Positions 55,940 to 64,000 of a stretch of DNA of 64,000 bases are shown piece after piece. This DNA is from an uncultured Gemmatimonadaceae bacterium (GTDB taxonomy: Bacteria; Gemmatimonadota; Gemmatimonadetes; Gemmatimonadales; Gemmatimonadaceae). The translations under genes and the position numbers were made by a program. Location: NCBI GenBank assembly GCA_963740355.1, contig CAVUDW010000003.1, positions 2,272,001 through 2,336,000 of the forward strand, read 5' to 3'. Within the stretch, counting starts at the first letter, position 1. Every line of letters begins with the position of its first letter. Below the pieces are notes generated by a model, which was not told the DNA's origin, ran no database searches, and saw only the letters and a program-made list of their open reading frames with translations.

Positions 55940-56046
55940 GGCTGACGGAACAGGGTTCTGTGAAGATGCGGCGGTCGGGTTTCGATCCTGAAGTTGTCCT
56001 GCTCACAATCTCCGCGCCGCTGTGTCAGCAGCAACCAGGGTGAGGC
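55940..56046 (-). repeat. Degenerate attC-like site
   Basis: GGCTGAC GGAACAGGGTTCTG...TGTCAGCAGCAACCAGG GTGAGGC: same arms as the 59-64 kb sites but with altered cores. Confidence 0.7.
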
Positions 56047-56676: not shown

Positions 56677-57011
56677 AACTATCCCGACTGCCGACATCGA
56701 CACCGGAATCGAGGACCTGCACCGCATGGCTCTCCTCAATTGTTCGTCGCGTAGATGCGTGCAGGCGCGACGGCGTCGGCGACACGTCGAACAATTCCCG
56801 CGGCGACATCGAGAGCCCGACATCAGCGAGGCAGTCAGACGACGTGGTCGATGGACTGCAGCTCGCGCGAACACGGACGAGGTGCGCCAGAGTGTGGTAC
56901 ACAGACTCAGGTCACGCATGACGGGTGTACACGCATTACGCTTCCGGGGACAGCGGAGCGGTTCCCGGCCCATCGGCCCGTCAATCCTCCGTCCACACGG
57001 AGGCACGTTCC

Positions 57012-57659
57012 ATGCGACGTTTCGTATCACTCCTCGCACTGTGCGCCTGCGTTCCAGCCGCGGCGCACGCTGGTGACCTGCAGCCCGGCCACGGGATTCT
57101 CGAGTCGATCGTCAGTGACGCCCCGGGTGCGTCGGGGTTCGCCTGGCTTCTGGACGACGGGATCGGCGCGTCGAGCGGCCGTCGCACCGGCATCGCGCCC
57201 GAATTCTGCTTGGGCGTCTGCACCTACAACTTCTCGAACAGCTTTGCGAACAGCCTGCTCGCAGGGACCACGAGTTCGGGTGAGTACACGGCGTTTGCAA
57301 GTTTCGTGTTCAGCGGCCCGTCAGTCGAAGCGCGTGCATGCCCGGTGGAATGCCAGCCCGGCGCGTTTGTCTACTCGGCCACCTGGGCAGACGTCCCGAT
57401 CACCATGACGGGCCAGGTGGACCTGGCCTCGAACGTCGATCCGCGCGTGATCCTTCGCTTCGTGATCGCCGGCTCAGGCATGGCACGGGCGCAGACGTTC
57501 CTGTACCCGAATCAGCCAGCCACCTTCAGCTACCGCCAGCTTCGCTACGATTTCAGGTACGACATCGTACCAGAACCACGGGCCATCATGCTCGTGCTCG
57601 TCGGCATGATGGTGCTCGGCGCGTGGCGACTGCGCGTACGCGTGCGCGCGGCCCAGTGA
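57012..57659 (+). CDS. PEP-CTERM sorting-domain protein (paralog 1)
   Basis: Signal peptide ending AHA; C-terminal VPEP + TM helix + Arg-rich tail; 215 aa. Confidence 0.88.
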   Translation: MRRFVSLLALCACVPAAAHAGDLQPGHGILESIVSDAPGASGFAWLLDDGIGASSGRRTGIAPEFCLGVCTYNFSNSFANSLLAGTTSSGEYTAFASFVFSGPSVEARACPVECQPGAFVYSATWADVPITMTGQVDLASNVDPRVILRFVIAGSGMARAQTFLYPNQPATFSYRQLRYDFRYDIVPEPRAIMLVLVGMMVLGAWRLRVRVRAAQ

Positions 57660-58040
57660 GTCGCTGCTCGCCCCTGACCGGTCGTGTCGGTGGGCGTAGT
57701 GAATACTGGGGCTCGGGCGATTATGTGGTCGCGTTCGCACTTCCCTGACGGTCGCGCCCGCACCCTGCCCCCGTCACGCCCTTTCCGGCTGTAGAACAGC
57801 AGCGGCCGACGTGCTGGCTGCCGCCTGTGTGCAAGGGAAATGCGCACACCCGTGTTTGGGCTGTCTGGAACTTCGTTCAGAGCCAACAACCTCGAGCGAT
57901 GAACGAATGCTCTAGTCGAGTGTGGTGACGCCACGCCATCGCGGGCAGACCGCATCGACATGCGCTACGCTTCAATGACCAACATGCTCGCACGCGCACC
58001 GCGAGCCATGGCGACCACTGTCCACAAGGAGATGCTCCGC

Positions 58041-58688
58041 ATGCGACGCGTCACCGCACTTCTCGCGATCTGCGCCATCCTTCCCGTGGCGGCACATGCC
58101 GGCGATTTTCAGCCTGGCCGCGGGTTTCTGGAGTCGCTTCGGGCTCCATTGCCTCGATACGCATGGTCGATTGCCGATGGGATCTCGTTCACCGACCGTT
58201 ACGGACCCGGCATCGCGCCCGGGGATTGTGTGGGTGTCTGTCCATACAATTTCTCGAATGACTTTTGGGGGGTCACCGAATCGGGTGACTATCAGGTCCA
58301 GGTATTTCTCCACTTCAGCGGGCCGACCGTCACGGCGATCACGAGGTGCGGCCCATACGGGTGTCCGCCCGATCACGTTTTCGGCTCCTACGCGAACGAC
58401 TGGGCGGACGTCCCGATCACGTTGACAGGGGAGGTGCACCTGATCTCGCGCATAGATCCCTTCGTCATCTTCCATTACCTCATTGCAGGATCCGGGACGG
58501 CTCGGGCGGAGACGCGTCAGTTCGCGGTGAATGAGGGCGAGTCCCATGACTACAACCTGCTCCGGTACGAATTCACGTACGACGTGGTGCCGGAGCCGCG
58601 TACCGCAGCGCTGTTCCTCTTCGGCACGATCGCGATCGGTGCCACCAGCCTGACACTGCGACGTCGGCGCGGCGCGGCGCGCGCCTGA
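58041..58688 (+). CDS. PEP-CTERM sorting-domain protein (paralog 2)
   Basis: AAGGAG RBS, signal peptide ending AHA, VPEP + TM + RRRR; 215 aa; clear similarity to paralog 1. Confidence 0.88.
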   Translation: MRRVTALLAICAILPVAAHAGDFQPGRGFLESLRAPLPRYAWSIADGISFTDRYGPGIAPGDCVGVCPYNFSNDFWGVTESGDYQVQVFLHFSGPTVTAITRCGPYGCPPDHVFGSYANDWADVPITLTGEVHLISRIDPFVIFHYLIAGSGTARAETRQFAVNEGESHDYNLLRYEFTYDVVPEPRTAALFLFGTIAIGATSLTLRRRRGAARA

Positions 58689-59209: not shown

Positions 59210-59305
59210 CGCTAACGAGACAGGGTTCTGCTGCAATGCGGCCACGAGATGGCCCGCCCGCTCACGATATCTCGATCGCATTGTCGGCAGCAACCGGCGT
59301 TAGGC
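59210..59305 (-). repeat. attC-like site 1
   Basis: + strand CGCTAAC GAGACAGGG TTCTGCTGCAATGCG...CGCATTGTCGGCAGCAA CCGGC GTTAGGC; 96 bp. Confidence 0.88.
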
Positions 59306-59406
59306 GCGGAAGGGGTCATGCCCGCTTCGCCCGGTACCAGAGTAGAACAGCCGCATGAACAAGCGTTGCCAAATCACGTGCGCACTGAGCCCCATCACGC
59401 AGCACG

Positions 59407-60180
59407 TTAGTACAGTCCGGCGAAGGTGTGACCCACCCAAGCGAGGCCGCGGGCGAGCGACTGACCAACGCCAGACGAGGCGCCTAGCCATGCGCTGACC
59501 TCGACAACGAGGCAGATCGCCAACGCCAGCCAGTACGCCCGGTGGACTCGCCGCTCGCGAAAAGCATCGTACCCGATGCCGCCGAGGATGAACATGTTGG
59601 TCGCCAGAATGCCTGCGGGCGTCGCCCAATCCACGGGACCGAACATCGTCATCACGATGCGAAACCCGGCAGCCCCCAGCCCGGCCGCGCCTGCCACCAG
59701 CATCAGCCGCTTGTGGATCGCGCGGTTCCTGCGCAGGACGATCGCTACGGTGTAGAAGCCGATGAAGAGCACGAGCGTCGCAAAGATCATCAGGCCGAAC
59801 GACGACCAGAAGGACGGCTCTGGCGACGCTACCGCCGCTGCCATCTGCACACCGAGAACTAGCGTGCCGGTAGCCGTCATGACCGCCGCGAGCCCGATGC
59901 TGCTCCAGCCCAGCGTGCGATGCGTGCGCACCCGCCGCGCGTGGATCAGTCCGGCCTGGAGCGGCAGGAGGAGATACCACGCGAAGAAACTCCAGCCATG
60001 GAGATGCACGGCGGGCGCGGCCGCCGGATAGGTGCCTCGGATGTTTGGGCCGAAGTACGTGAACCAGAAGCCAAGGTACGCGGTGGCACTCAAGGCCAGC
60101 GCGGTCAGCAGATAGTGCGCCTCCCGCTGCCGGGAGGGAGCGCCCACGACCACGGGCACGGCATCAGTCATGAGCGCCAT
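59407..60180 (-). CDS. Cassette gene: multi-pass membrane protein
   Basis: HLHG..F..W..L...Q..LI......HR.LG and HKRLM motifs; about 7 TM helices. Confidence 0.8.
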   Translation of the reverse strand: MALMTDAVPVVVGAPSRQREAHYLLTALALSATAYLGFWFTYFGPNIRGTYPAAAPAVHLHGWSFFAWYLLLPLQAGLIHARRVRTHRTLGWSSIGLAAVMTATGTLVLGVQMAAAVASPEPSFWSSFGLMIFATLVLFIGFYTVAIVLRRNRAIHKRLMLVAGAAGLGAAGFRIVMTMFGPVDWATPAGILATNMFILGGIGYDAFRERRVHRAYWLALAICLVVEVSAWLGASSGVGQSLARGLAWVGHTFAGLY

Positions 60181-60268
60181 ACGTCACGCAGGCGTGGGGG
60201 GGACGACACATCGGAACATCATCACGAGTGACCTGCGTGGCAAACACGAGACGTCGAGGTGAAGTAGC

Positions 60269-60412
60269 GCCAAACGAAACTGGGTTTTGCTGCACGGAGT
60301 CCTCCACGCGCGTTCCTGTTCACGTCAGGCGTCGTCGCCTCGACGGGTGAATGTCTGCGGCGACTGGACACCGTCCATACGCCCAGTCATCGGTCACCAA
60401 CCGTCGTTAGGG
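60269..60412 (-). repeat. attC-like site 2 (long, divergent)
   Basis: GCCAAAC GAAACTGGG TTTTGCTGCA...CAACCGTC GTTAGGG; 144 bp; the upstream gene's TAA lies in the core. Confidence 0.7.
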
Positions 60413-60904
60413 GGAGCCCAGAACCGGGAGCGACGGATAGAACCACGCATGTCGGATCAGTCGGTCGCGGACCTCGTAGACGACGAGGCTGGTCTGTCCA
60501 CCGACGCCGGATGACGACGCATCCCATCGTGTTCGTTCGTGCGTCGTCACCCATGGCCCCGTCGCGTCGATCGTGCGCAGCTCCGAGCGCGCTGACGGCA
60601 CGGCACGAAAGTATCCCGAGATCATCCGCCGAAACGCGTCGATGCCGCGTCCTACATCGCTCAGTGAGTCGCCAGCCACGCTCATCCACACCACGTCGCT
60701 CGCGACCACCCTCATCATGGCGTCCAGATCCTTGGCATTGAACGCCGCCACGTACGCACGGACCACCGAGATCGGCGTGGTGTCGCGCGCGCTGTTCACC
60801 GCACGCTGCGCGCCTGCGGCAGCGGTGTGGCCGAGAAGCAGGATGACAAGCAGCATGAGGCGGCCTCGCTCGAGACCATCCAAGAGACAACGTACGTGGC
60901 TCAT
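60407..60904 (-). CDS. Cassette gene: SnoaL/NTF2-like secreted protein
   Basis: YVAAFNAKDLD, GPWV..HE, VYEVRD.LI..AW.Y; ATG directly after the attC core (alternative start 60857). Confidence 0.82.
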   Translation of the reverse strand: MSHVRCLLDGLERGRLMLLVILLLGHTAAAGAQRAVNSARDTTPISVVRAYVAAFNAKDLDAMMRVVASDVVWMSVAGDSLSDVGRGIDAFRRMISGYFRAVPSARSELRTIDATGPWVTTHERTRWDASSSGVGGQTSLVVYEVRDRLIRHAWFYPSLPVLGSP

Positions 60905-60910
60905 CGCTCC

Positions 60911-61007
60911 ACCTAACGAGACAGGGTTCTGCTGCACGGCGACCGCACCTTCCTTATTCCGGGACACCAGCCGCCGGTCGCCGTGGCTGCAACAATCAGG
61001 GTTAGGC
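60911..61007 (-). repeat. attC-like site 3
   Basis: ACCTAAC GAGACAGGG TTCTGCTGCACGGCGACCG...CGGTCGCCGTGGCTGCAACAA TCAGG GTTAGGC; 97 bp. Confidence 0.88.
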
Positions 61008-61032
61008 CGCCCGCAACACGTCCCCGACTGCG

Positions 61033-61233
61033 CTACCGCTCGCGTCGGGCGAGCGCTTGGAAGAAGCTGGGGCTCTGTACCGCGTCAGTGAAGTCGATGC
61101 CAACGATCTCCCACCCATCGGCGCCGAGCTCGTTCAAGTACGCCTCCAGTGCATCTCGTTCCTTGATGCCAAAGAAACCACCGCCCTGCACGTCGTTGGT
61201 GCTGATCAACTTGTACTCCCATCGGCGCGACAT
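61033..61233 (-). CDS. Cassette gene: DUF4177-like protein
   Basis: WEYK, LNELGADGWEIV; AGGAG RBS. Confidence 0.8.
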   Translation of the reverse strand: MSRRWEYKLISTNDVQGGGFFGIKERDALEAYLNELGADGWEIVGIDFTDAVQSPSFFQALARRER

Positions 61234-61261
61234 CGAGTTCTCCTGTGTTGTTCAACTTTGC

Positions 61262-61450
61262 GCGGGCGAGCCACCCCGATGCGGCGATGTCCGCACCGTG
61301 AAGATCCGGTATCTACGGTAGAGCGTCCGCGCTGGAGATGCTTGCCGCGGGCAGATCCAGCACTTCGCTGACCCGGATGGGCAGGTCGCGGACGCAAATT
61401 TGCCCACCACACTGGTCGGGGTTCACGGTAATGGGGTCCTTGAGTTCAAC
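61262..61450 (-). pseudogene. DUF433 antitoxin-like pseudogene
   Basis: ITVNPDQCGGQICVRDLPIRVSEVLDL...; internal TAG at 61313, then IPDLHGADIAA in frame; no start codon. Confidence 0.65.
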
Positions 61451-61535
61451 GGTCTGCCGCGTGCGCCTCGCCCTGGTTGGGAAGGCTGGAAACCTGTCGT
61501 CGAACAAGAGTGCGCAACACCACAGGTGGCTGGCG

Positions 61536-61631
61536 TTCTAACGAGACAGGGTTCTGCTGCAATGCGGCTTCTTGATCCTACGCCTCCTCAACGATGGTCG
61601 GCCGCATTGTCAGCAGCAACCCGGGCTAGGT
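61536..61631 (-). repeat. attC-like site 4 (R'' core AAC>AGC)
   Basis: TTCTAAC GAGACAGGG TTCTGCTGCAATGCGGC...GCCGCATTGTCAGCAGCAA CCCGG GCTAGGT; 96 bp. Confidence 0.88.
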
Positions 61632-62220
61632 GGCTGGCGGGCTGCAGCGAGATCCGAAACCGTTTGCCGGGCGTGCCACCATGACTCTCGGGTTTGGAAA
61701 AATTTTCGACGAAAATCCCACCATTTGATTCGATCACTCGCTGGGATGCTACGTTCGCGGCATCCGTTGTGAGCTCGACGAACGGGAGGTCAAGCGACAC
61801 GAGTTCGGGCAGCAACAGCGCGAGCGCGCGCGTCGCATAGCCGCGACGCCGTTTCCATGGTACGACCGAATAGCCGATGTGTCCGAGACACGTCGGAGGG
61901 AGCGCCGTCGTTCCTGGCTGCCACCGCACATTGATGGCGCCTGAGAATTCACCGTCCCAGAGCCAGCGCGTGAAGCCAGGAAGCCGAGGCACCGACGAAC
62001 CATCCGGAAGCACAATCGCCGGTCCGCGCGCGGCGCGGTCGACTTGCGCCTCGACGAATTGCGCCGGATCCTGCGCGATGCGCGCCAACTCGTCGTGCGC
62101 GGCGTCCGCCCGTTGCGTATCCGGCGACCAACCTTGGCGGAGTGCCGCGGCGTAGCTCGGTAGAAACTCCGCGGCGGGCCAGACGAGTTCCACGGTGAAC
62201 ACGCGCAGTGGTGAAGCCAC
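61588..62220 (-). CDS. Cassette gene: GNAT acetyltransferase
   Basis: GHIGYSVVPWKRRRGYA, NVASQRVIESNGG; start GTG overlaps the attC core; 3' end reads into site 4. Confidence 0.9.
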   Translation of the reverse strand: MASPLRVFTVELVWPAAEFLPSYAAALRQGWSPDTQRADAAHDELARIAQDPAQFVEAQVDRAARGPAIVLPDGSSVPRLPGFTRWLWDGEFSGAINVRWQPGTTALPPTCLGHIGYSVVPWKRRRGYATRALALLLPELVSLDLPFVELTTDAANVASQRVIESNGGIFVENFSKPESHGGTPGKRFRISLQPASHLARVAADNAADHR

Positions 62221-62314
62221 CTAACGAGACGGGGTCCTGTTGCAATGCGACCGCACGATCGTTCTCCTGCGCACGATACCTCGGTCGCATTGTCAGCAGC
62301 AACCAGGGTTAGAC
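62219..62314 (-). repeat. attC-like site 5
   Basis: ACCTAAC GAGACGGGG TCCTGTTGCAATGCGACCG...CGGTCGCATTGTCAGCAGCAA CCAGG GTTAGAC; 96 bp. Confidence 0.9.
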
Positions 62315-62459
62315 CTCAGGCGCACGAATGCCCTCGCTCTCGACGGCGAAGTGAGCATGTGGCGATCAGCCGTACCCACACGTTGCCACAACCTTCCGCC
62401 GCCCAGCTATTGCCGCTGAACTAGTGAGCGGCGCCTTGACCGCGATCCGTTGCCAGCGG

Positions 62460-62807
62460 CTAGAGGTCCCACCCGAGGAAATGACGGACGTCATCTATGG
62501 CGTCGTAGGCGTGCCCAGAGACGTAGGTGTCCGGATCCAGGAGGGCCGAACGGAGGAATGGTTCCACACGCGCCCGGTCCAACTGCCCGAAACGCCGCGC
62601 AAGATGCCCAAAGCCCAGGATGGCGTTCCCCCGCACGTTGAAGTGGGAGTGCGCAGCCAGCCGGAGACAGACTCCCTGAGTCCACTCCAGATTGTCCGAG
62701 TACAGCGATGCGGCAACCGGCACGTAGAGCAACTCTGCCGGGTCATCCCGCAGGATCGCCGCTTCTGCGGCTGCTTCACCGAGAAAATCGAGTGACTCGT
62801 ACTGCAT
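62460..62807 (-). CDS. Cassette gene: small HEAT-like hypothetical protein
   Basis: 115 aa; H.NVRGNAILGFGHLARRF, AL.DPD.YV; sole ORF filling the cassette in array orientation. Confidence 0.75.
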   Translation of the reverse strand: MQYESLDFLGEAAAEAAILRDDPAELLYVPVAASLYSDNLEWTQGVCLRLAAHSHFNVRGNAILGFGHLARRFGQLDRARVEPFLRSALLDPDTYVSGHAYDAIDDVRHFLGWDL

Positions 62808-62829
62808 GGAAGCAATGAGCTTTGCTGAG

Positions 62830-62925
62830 GTCTAACGAGACAGGGTTCTGCTGCAATGCGACCGCACGTTCCTTCTCCTGCTCACGGCACCCCGGTCGCA
62901 TTGTCAGCAGCCACCCGGGTTTGGC
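62830..62925 (-). repeat. attC-like site 6
   Basis: GTCTAAC GAGACAGGG TTCTGCTGCAATGCGACCG...CGGTCGCATTGTCAGCAGCCA CCCGG GTTTGGC; 96 bp. Confidence 0.9.
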
Positions 62926-62950
62926 GGCCGCGCAAACGCTCGCGGCTTGA

Positions 62951-63493
62951 TCAATCGCAGTCGCTATACCCGGTGTGGCGGCCGCAGTGCAAACAGCGAA
63001 AGATATAGGCCACGGGACTACCCGATGCGTCCATCTCCGCGAACCACGATTCCCAGTCGCTGCCCGACATCTCTGACTCGCGTCGAAGGTCCGGAATCGC
63101 GTCCGGGAAGCGCGTGACGATCTCCTCTTGCCCGGCTGTGCCGAGGTATGCAGCGGCGTCGCCGCAGCAGACGGCCCAACGCTCCTGCTGCCATCCACTG
63201 AACCCGGGCGTTCGAAATGCGACCTCAGCGATCACGTCCGCGGAAGCTACCGGCCAAATGCCGCCGCCAATGCCGTCTGAGTCGGTGCACTCCGCATCAA
63301 ACATCTCGTGTACGGAGCCATCGGCGATACACCACGGACATACCGTGCCATGCAGTTCGTCCACGGCGTAGACCGGGCCGACGTACATAAACCCGCGCAC
63401 CCGATGGCAGCACCGACATGTGTCGCGAGATTGGACAATGCTTCCGGTCGCAATCGGATCCGGATGATGACGGAACGTAGGCAATGCTTCCAC
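62951..63493 (-). CDS. Cassette gene: CbrC (UPF0167) family protein
   Basis: LPTFRHHPDP..TG, CPWCIADG, RTPGFSGWQQE.W, YIFRCLHCG; start probably GTG 63493. Confidence 0.85.
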   Translation of the reverse strand: MEALPTFRHHPDPIATGSIVQSRDTCRCCHRVRGFMYVGPVYAVDELHGTVCPWCIADGSVHEMFDAECTDSDGIGGGIWPVASADVIAEVAFRTPGFSGWQQERWAVCCGDAAAYLGTAGQEEIVTRFPDAIPDLRRESEMSGSDWESWFAEMDASGSPVAYIFRCLHCGRHTGYSDCD

Positions 63494-63520
63494 GGGTGCG
63501 CTGCTCAATGATGACTGACC

Positions 63521-63616
63521 GCCTAACGAAACTGGGTTCGGCTGCAATGCGACCGCGCGATCCTTCTCCTGCTCACGATAGCCCGGTCGCATTGTCAGCA
63601 GCAACCCGGGTTAGGG
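63521..63616 (-). repeat. attC-like site 7
   Basis: GCCTAAC GAAACTGGG TTCGGCTGCAATGCGACCG...CGGTCGCATTGTCAGCAGCAA CCCGG GTTAGGG; 96 bp. Confidence 0.9.
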
Positions 63617-63688: not shown

Positions 63689-64000
63689 TCACTGCAGTCG
63701 CCTCTGCAGATCAATGACGGATGCACGCCACGCATCGCCTTCGTCCGACTCAGCCCACAACTCCGCCAGCTCCGAACTTTCGAGCACCAGCGCCACTGCG
63801 CGGCGCGTGTTTTCCACGAGCTCGTCGCCAAGGTCAAACCCGGCCAGTTTTCGCACGTACGCGGCAACATCCGGAGGCAGGTCCAAGGAAGGTCGGCCAC
63901 GGATACCGGCGATGATCTCCGCGGCAGCCAACCCTTCCTCGCATACGGGGGCTTCGAGATAATCGGGCGCGAGATCCAAGATCGCTTGAACCGCGACTCC
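63689..64000 (-). CDS. Cassette gene: DUF4259-like protein (5' end outside window)
   Basis: LAAAEIIA, SELAELW.ES, W...V.DL..RL; frame open to the window edge. Confidence 0.75.
   Translation of the reverse strand, partial: GVAVQAILDLAPDYLEAPVCEEGLAAAEIIAGIRGRPSLDLPPDVAAYVRKLAGFDLGDELVENTRRAVALVLESSELAELWAESDEGDAWRASVIDLQRRLQ

Follow-up and report, generated by a model that had tools for sequence, protein, structure and literature searches.

The stretch of DNA analysed here (the window: 64,000 nt, C3:2272001-2336000, in a Gemmatimonadaceae genome of 5.45 Mb, 65% G+C and five contigs) contains, from position 59210 to its end, an imperfect palindrome of about 96 nt that is repeated between short open reading frames (ORFs), all of them on the minus strand. 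These repeats are very probably the attC sites of a sedentary chromosomal integron, in which spacers of 4 nt between R'' and L'' and 8 nt between L' and R' are a trait of the genus. They represent a new attC family within a known kind of element, and no new recombination system is indicated. Geometries are written in two notations below: 4/8 gives R''-L''/L'-R' on the cassette strand, and 8/4 gives the 5' arm and the 3' arm of the bottom strand.

Hairpin and spacer geometry of the repeats

On the plus strand each repeat runs through CTAAC, an 8-nt arm (mostly GAGACAGG or GAAACTGG), GTT, CTGCTG, stem, loop, stem, a flipped base (mostly T), CAGCAG, a flipped C, AAC, a 4-nt arm (mostly CCGG) and GTTAG. 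This is the shape of an attC bottom strand, with the cassettes on the minus strand; read on the cassette strand, R''-L'' measures 4 nt, L'-R' 8 nt, and the flipped bases are G and A. At up to three mismatches the 3' arm has five matches in the window and the 5' arm six, where shuffles lead us to expect 0.00. An earlier note on this DNA, made from the letters alone, had stated that the two spacer lengths hold in all well-preserved copies, and a covariance-model alignment agrees: all six well-preserved window sites are 8/4. Among 14 sites of the window's array, aligned and read by eye, 11 are 8/4, two are 7/4 and one has a deletion in the 3' arm.

We also enumerated every spacer register, anchored on 3 bp, flipped base, 6 bp, flipped base and stem. 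For four of the five top-scoring related sites shown, 8/4 is the only solution, and the fifth is 8/4 with G as second flipped base; in later runs some sites with stem mismatches yielded no parse or another register. A canonical 5-nt register for the window's class was considered and rejected, the first run of the enumeration having returned 8/4 only.

A larger alignment of 128 sites, from the window's own array and the loci of relatives (27 sources; 124 distinct sites for covariation), consists of 111 sites with 8/4, 13 with 7/4, two with 8/5, one with 9/4 and one with 8/1, in which the arm is deleted. Both extrahelical bases belong to the bottom strand's 3' arm: 3 bp of the L box precede the first, and the second stands 6 bp further on. 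C occupies the first of these positions in 125 of the 128 sites, and the second is held by T (77 sites), G (38), A (12) or C (one). The AAC/GTT triplet of the R box is paired in 116-120 of the 124 distinct sites. Across these 124 sites 89.1% of the alignment cells pair, against 19-52% in slid registers, and changes on both sides of a pair occur in 279 cells, against 116.8 in shuffles. The 14 sites of the window's array behave in the same way (87.4% of cells paired against 19-45%; 23 cells with changes on both sides against 11.3, a value above every shuffle). The compensatory changes support the hairpin as a real structure. DNA folding of six window sites gave z values from -1.65 to -5.71.

The spacers depart in length and pairing from the unpaired central spacer of about 5-6 nt per arm that Nivina 2016 describes for attC sites, since the arms are 4 and 8 nt long and two of their positions pair. 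Where the long arm ends and the short arm begins, the two bases concerned (alignment columns 19 and 93) pair in 119 of 123 sites (GC 101, CG 15, GU 2, AU 1, unpaired 4), and columns 18 and 95 pair in 108 of 122. As these two spacer bases pair and covary, the L helix is longer by two pairs and a purine-rich bulge of 4 nt is left. The four bases with which the long arm starts (GAGA, GAAA) form this bulge, which is situated directly 3' of the R-box AAC and is visible in the folds.

In the mechanism that we favour, the plus strand of each site folds into a recombinogenic hairpin. This comprises a 7-bp R box, the spacer region and an L box, two flipped bases separated by 6 bp (the first C, the second mostly T), and a stem with its loop. 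The integron integrase would bind the R box and the L box, and one strand would be exchanged at the AAC/GTT triplet of the R box. Next to the L box the two covarying spacer bases are paired, often with a further pair or wobble after them, and GAGA or GAAA is bulged out immediately 3' of the AAC in the R box. Classical sites, too, have their longer arm on this side, so that bend and strand choice should be kept. This side carries the longer arm in every geometry seen in the phylum (5/4, 5/5, 6/4, 6/5, 7/4, 7/5, 8/4, 8/5, 9/4 and 9/5).

The integrase partner and the distribution of the class

The gene intI is located at C3:2343144-2344244 on the minus strand, about 7 kb beyond the end of the window, with an intact frame of 366 amino acids (aa). 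Its product matches TIGR02249 with 386.2 bits (cut-off 265), an alignment that spans positions 3-313 of the 315 in the model. The protein shares 46.9% identity with IntI1 and aligns without large gaps to VchIntIA (2a3v, E 1.8e-75), including the IntI-specific segment, the equivalent of W219 and the catalytic R, K, HxxR and H...Y residues. The integron belongs to the inverted group, in which intI is co-directional with the cassettes, an orientation that the related loci share. Directly upstream of intI and on the same strand there is an arsenite methyltransferase gene (L001:2567-3622; NF008823, E 8e-105).

The earlier note had proposed that the sites might be processed by a divergent integrase or by another recombinase of single-stranded hairpins, and that a new model should be built from the copies, searched against genomes and compared with the recombinases that co-occur. 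That a recombinase of the HUH transposase or Xer type acts on the sites is extremely improbable, although no search aimed at HUH transposase genes was made: Xer-like genes are present elsewhere in the genome, each of them either on a different contig or separated from the array by more than 1 Mb; a bona fide IntI immediately precedes the array and shares its orientation on all eight contigs where both features can be read together; and the R box, L box and flipped bases fit IntI substrates. In 80 IntI loci, every distinct match to R1, the covariance model of the window's attC class, is located downstream of intI, whose direction is opposite to that of the match's bottom strand. A model-free scan of related loci called 65 sites on the expected strand and four on the other, against 12 on the two strands of shuffled DNA together.

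The 4/8 class is genus-specific, as the earlier note had supposed in calling it a lineage-specific class of sites. Among relatives, R1 at E<=1e-9 found it in 19 of 19 genomes of the same genus and in one of 41 of other genera. In a family-wide sample of 150 genomes from 77 genera, searched at E<=1e-12, it was found in all three genomes of the genus and in one of the 147 others, as a single site. Both searches together revealed the class outside its own genus as two single sites only; these tallies include one genome marked as unpublished (G026), which has no attC match and on which none of the conclusions depends. Integron integrases are far wider spread, with 41 of 61 relatives above the cut-off (the window's genome included), and the closest public integrase loci are almost all from Gemmatimonadota or Gemmatimonadaceae.

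This restriction to one genus lends itself to a different explanation, namely that the 4/8 spacing serves as a code of specificity to which the inverted integrases of the Gemmatimonas type are co-adapted. Sites of the class would then be recombined well by those enzymes alone and poorly by integrases of the IntI1 type, and the flow of cassettes out of the genus would be limited. A 4-nt R''-L'' spacer occurs in none of the 96 mobile-integron seed sites discussed below, and published changes to the unpaired central spacer can shift the recombination of one Vibrio cholerae repeat (VCR) by orders of magnitude, at least as far as the literature covered describes it. Nevertheless, we regard a co-adapted code as unlikely. 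In an integrase tree (69 sequences; a quick tree with support from the Shimodaira-Hasegawa-like approximate likelihood ratio test, SH-aLRT, only) the 8/4 arrays adjoin three IntI lineages: the window's clade with L041, L038, L039 and L051; L094 with L085; and L100 with L093. The three are 53-76% identical to the window's enzyme, and each stands directly upstream of arrays of the same class. The starred branches of the tree require at least two changes, and the nearest sister integrases flank 6/5 arrays. L100 and L038 are from the window's genus.

Geometries are moreover mixed within single arrays, as in L066, which combines 5/4, 5/5, 7/5 and 8/5; in the cultured relative Gemmatirosa all 21 sites are 6/5. 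One cassette is common to the window's genome (window positions 62219-62925) and a second genome, G016 (L038:19417-20071), with 78% identity and different neighbours. The homology ends within the two flanking attC sites, and in one of the genomes the cassette's own attC has 8/4 arms, in the other 7/4, with the short arm changed to match. A sedentary array inherited by shared descent would equally be restricted to a genus. On present evidence, the class is not tied to one integrase lineage. The narrower proposal that the compressed 4-nt arm and the conserved purine bulge beside the cleavage triplet constitute the code, that they act as a barrier to cassette flow, and that standard pipelines under-call the arrays, likewise seems improbable to us. 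We infer instead that IntI recombines the 4/8 sites and that their geometry is tolerated without need for a special enzyme.

Several observations weigh against the favoured explanation. The size of the bulge is not fixed, as a third possible spacer pair (columns 15 and 98) is formed in only 60 of 124 sites. The folds show no consistent difference in stability in favour of the bottom strand over the top strand, a comparison that we did not use as evidence; the mobile-integron sites of Nivina 2016 have a mean bias towards bottom-strand stability. The attI site is a candidate only, a GTTAGAC core that stands some 280 nt past the stop codon of intI (L001:1124-1130) and before the first cassette. 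Finally, conserved triplets are mutated in some window sites (GCTAG, CAC, GTTTG, AAT), and part of the distal array is possibly inactive for this reason.

Taken further, mutated triplets or stems in several window sites, two badly decayed sites and the position of the window in the distal part of the array could mean that the sites are relics of a once-active integron and that the odd geometry is a product of decay. We consider this very unlikely, given that the geometry is kept in 111 of the 128 aligned sites with covarying pairs, that the integrase frame is intact, and that one cassette is common to genomes in which its neighbours differ.

Organisation of the array and its cassettes

Searched with R1 at E<=0.01, the genome yields 34 matches, some of them opposite-strand echoes of the same site. 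By our reading of the matches there are 16 distinct sites between C3:2327940 and C3:2341783, all on one strand, and the array extends about 5.8 kb beyond the end of the window. The sites stand at the 3' ends of ORFs in a one-directional array, with minus-strand ORFs between successive sites. The sites described below are on the plus strand and the cassette ORFs on the minus strand; the kinds of cassette ORF are the usual ones (SnoaL-like, GNAT, UPF0167, DUF4177, DUF433 and DUF4259).

The distal end of the array is marked by an 8/4 site at 59210-59305 (81.9 bits with R1; supported by a row in the 14-site alignment and by its fold). It is followed by a decayed, longer attC-like site with a 138-nt core at 60271-60412, which has fuzzy matches to both arms and a fold z of -2.21, and no R1 match at E<=0.01. 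This site bounds the cassette that carries the ORF 59407-60180, encoding a hydrophobic protein of 257 aa with no Pfam family in a Pfam scan. The next ORF, 60407-60967, encodes a SnoaL-like domain protein (PF12680, E 1.3e-14), and the adjoining 8/4 site at 60911-61007 (84.2 bits; a row in the 14-site alignment) has a mutated inner stem and AAT in place of AAC. A DUF4177 ORF (61033-61233; PF13783, E 1.5e-6) and a small DUF433 ORF (61313-61507; PF04255, E 1.9e-6) are contained in the same cassette, and next to them lies the 8/4 site at 61536-61631, with GCTAG as R'' (91.5 bits; fold z -5.71).

A GNAT acetyltransferase (61588-62220; PF13302, E 1.4e-8) precedes the 8/4 site at 62219-62314 (90.9 bits), the own site of the cassette shared with G016, inside which the homology to G016 ends. 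The shared cassette carries an ORF of 115 aa (62460-62807) with a HEAT_2 match below its cut-off. At 62830-62925 there is an 8/4 site with CAC for AAC and GTTTG for GTTAG (98.5 bits; fold z -4.44). The ORF 62951-63604 belongs to the UPF0167 family (PF03691, E 3e-52, from residue 41); as its listed frame begins within an attC, the real start is probably internal. That attC, the 8/4 site at 63521-63616, is the best preserved in the window (100.3 bits), and its fold displays the R box, the 4-nt bulge and the rest of the spacer paired. A DUF4259 ORF (63689-64000; PF14078, E 1.4e-15) continues off the end of the window. The first cassette next to intI comprises a small DUF433-like frame and a DUF2071 ORF, with no attC between them.

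Throughout the genus the loop, or variable terminal structure, has a conserved sequence (e.g. window positions 63556-63585). On the cassette strand it carries an AGGAG-like run, which is too far from the likely start of the next ORF for an obvious ribosome site.

Past the end of the array a decayed attC-like remnant is found at 55940-56046 on the plus strand (34.3 bits, E 4.2e-5). Between this remnant and the site at 59210 there are two paralogous plus-strand ORFs, 56925-57659 and 57960-58688; a Pfam scan of one of them gave no family. Sites of the same class also occur far from the integron, singly or in small clusters (C3:724755-734232, C3:839412-839511, C2:1421394-1434650, C2:1692394-1692488 and C2:1978292-1978918), and resemble clusters of attC sites lacking integron integrases (CALIN-like).

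Comparison with known attC sites

The seed of the standard model, attC_4, comprises 96 mobile-integron sites, in which we counted spacers by eye from the Stockholm file. R''-L'' is 5 nt in 94 of them, 8 nt in one and 3 nt in one; L'-R' is 5-6 nt in 92, 4 nt in one, 7 nt in two and 10 nt in one, and 8 nt in none. The claim of the earlier note that the spacers depart from the classical norm is supported by these counts. Its further claim, that G and A as top-strand flipped bases are unusual, did not stand: about 22 of the 96 seed sites, again by eye, have G as top-strand flipped base, and sites of the form T-N6-C are reported as well excised by Larouche and Roy 2011. According to Nivina 2016, the first flipped base of mobile-integron attC sites is usually G, the last is a conserved T, and 6 bp are needed between them.

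The canonical geometry was taken from this published seed alignment because our own scanner provides a thin positive control. In its first form it called nothing in class 1 plasmid loci, since its length rule excluded short sites; relaxed, it called only two sites in four class 1 loci, both 6/5 with G/T. A scan of the window against Rfam gave no family at gathering score, and to our knowledge Rfam holds no attC model.

The inclusion limit of IntegronFinder is E = 1. Standard-model scores of the 4/8 sites are expected to be near this limit, judging by the E-values of two catalogued integrons, those of Gemmatimonas aurantiaca T-27 and phmi.001 (Phycisphaerales). In the table of Cury 2016, site attc_002 of T-27 has the geometry 4/5, the same L boxes as the window's class and an E-value of 0.0096, and the 14 rows of phmi.001 have an 8-nt L'-R' with a 5-nt R''-L'' at E-values from 2.9e-5 to 0.23. 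Taken singly, each deviation thus has entries in the catalogue, which the standard model aligned in the canonical way and at weak scores. Their combination was found neither in the seed nor in the 29 attC rows viewed in that table, of which 28 have an R''-L'' of 5 nt and one has 4 nt. We had considered reading the entry 'default = No' in this table as 'missed by default search', and rejected this reading, because 'No' stands in every row viewed, strong canonical sites included.

In the literature covered on attC sites, integrons and Gemmatimonadota, including the supplement of Cury 2016, we found no description of the 4/8 geometry; one review merely lists the phylum. Spacers of up to 10 nt are allowed by Buongermino Pereira 2020, who consider that tools trained on class 1 probably miss other forms. 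Ghaly 2021 provides 11 taxon-specific attC models, none of them for Gemmatimonadota, and its main text does not mention this phylum. The T-27 sites score weakly with the mobile-integron-trained model (E 0.008-0.075 in the table of Cury 2016), and weak scores of this kind may mean that the cassette pools of a soil and freshwater phylum are under-counted.

Where natural attC families differ in nothing but the geometry of their spacers, they offer ready substrates for asking how much alteration of R-to-L spacing and of spacer pairing IntI tolerates. The published work covered has addressed such tolerance chiefly through inverted or paired spacers in a single Vibrio site. The structural twist of the 4/8 sites is modest and worth a recombination assay.

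Among the closest known counterparts is the integron of G. aurantiaca T-27, which likewise belongs to the Gemmatimonadaceae, has a top-strand flipped G and is flagged in the table of Cury 2016 as having the inverted-integrase layout, a group which that paper discusses. Its L boxes are those of the window's class (GTTGCTGC / GCAGAAC, cassette strand), and one of its three sites shares the 4-nt R''-L''. Unlike the window's class, this site has an L'-R' of 5 nt rather than 8, the two others are 5/5, and there are only three cassettes. The planctomycete phmi.001, which is found by the standard model, has the 8-nt L'-R' of the window's class in all 14 rows viewed and resembles it in the L boxes (GTTGCAGC / GCTGAAC). 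It differs in its 5-nt R''-L'', in its phylum and in its integrase, for which the single complete integron row viewed carries no inverted flag.

With the mobile-integron attC sites described in the literature covered, the window's class shares R boxes of the form RYYYAAC / GTTRRRY, an L box in which 3 bp precede a flipped base, flipped bases set 6 bp apart, and a longer arm on the same side. In contrast, the spacers of the mobile-integron sites are 5 and 5-6 nt long and mostly unpaired, whereas those of the window's class are 4 and 8 nt long, with two to three pairs and a 4-nt bulge. The first flipped base of the bottom strand is usually G in the former and C in the latter, and the second, a conserved T in mobile integrons, varies in the window's class as given above. 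In being homogeneous, conserved within a taxon and fit for a taxon-specific covariance model, the 4/8 sites resemble the taxon-specific attC families that are presented in Ghaly 2021.

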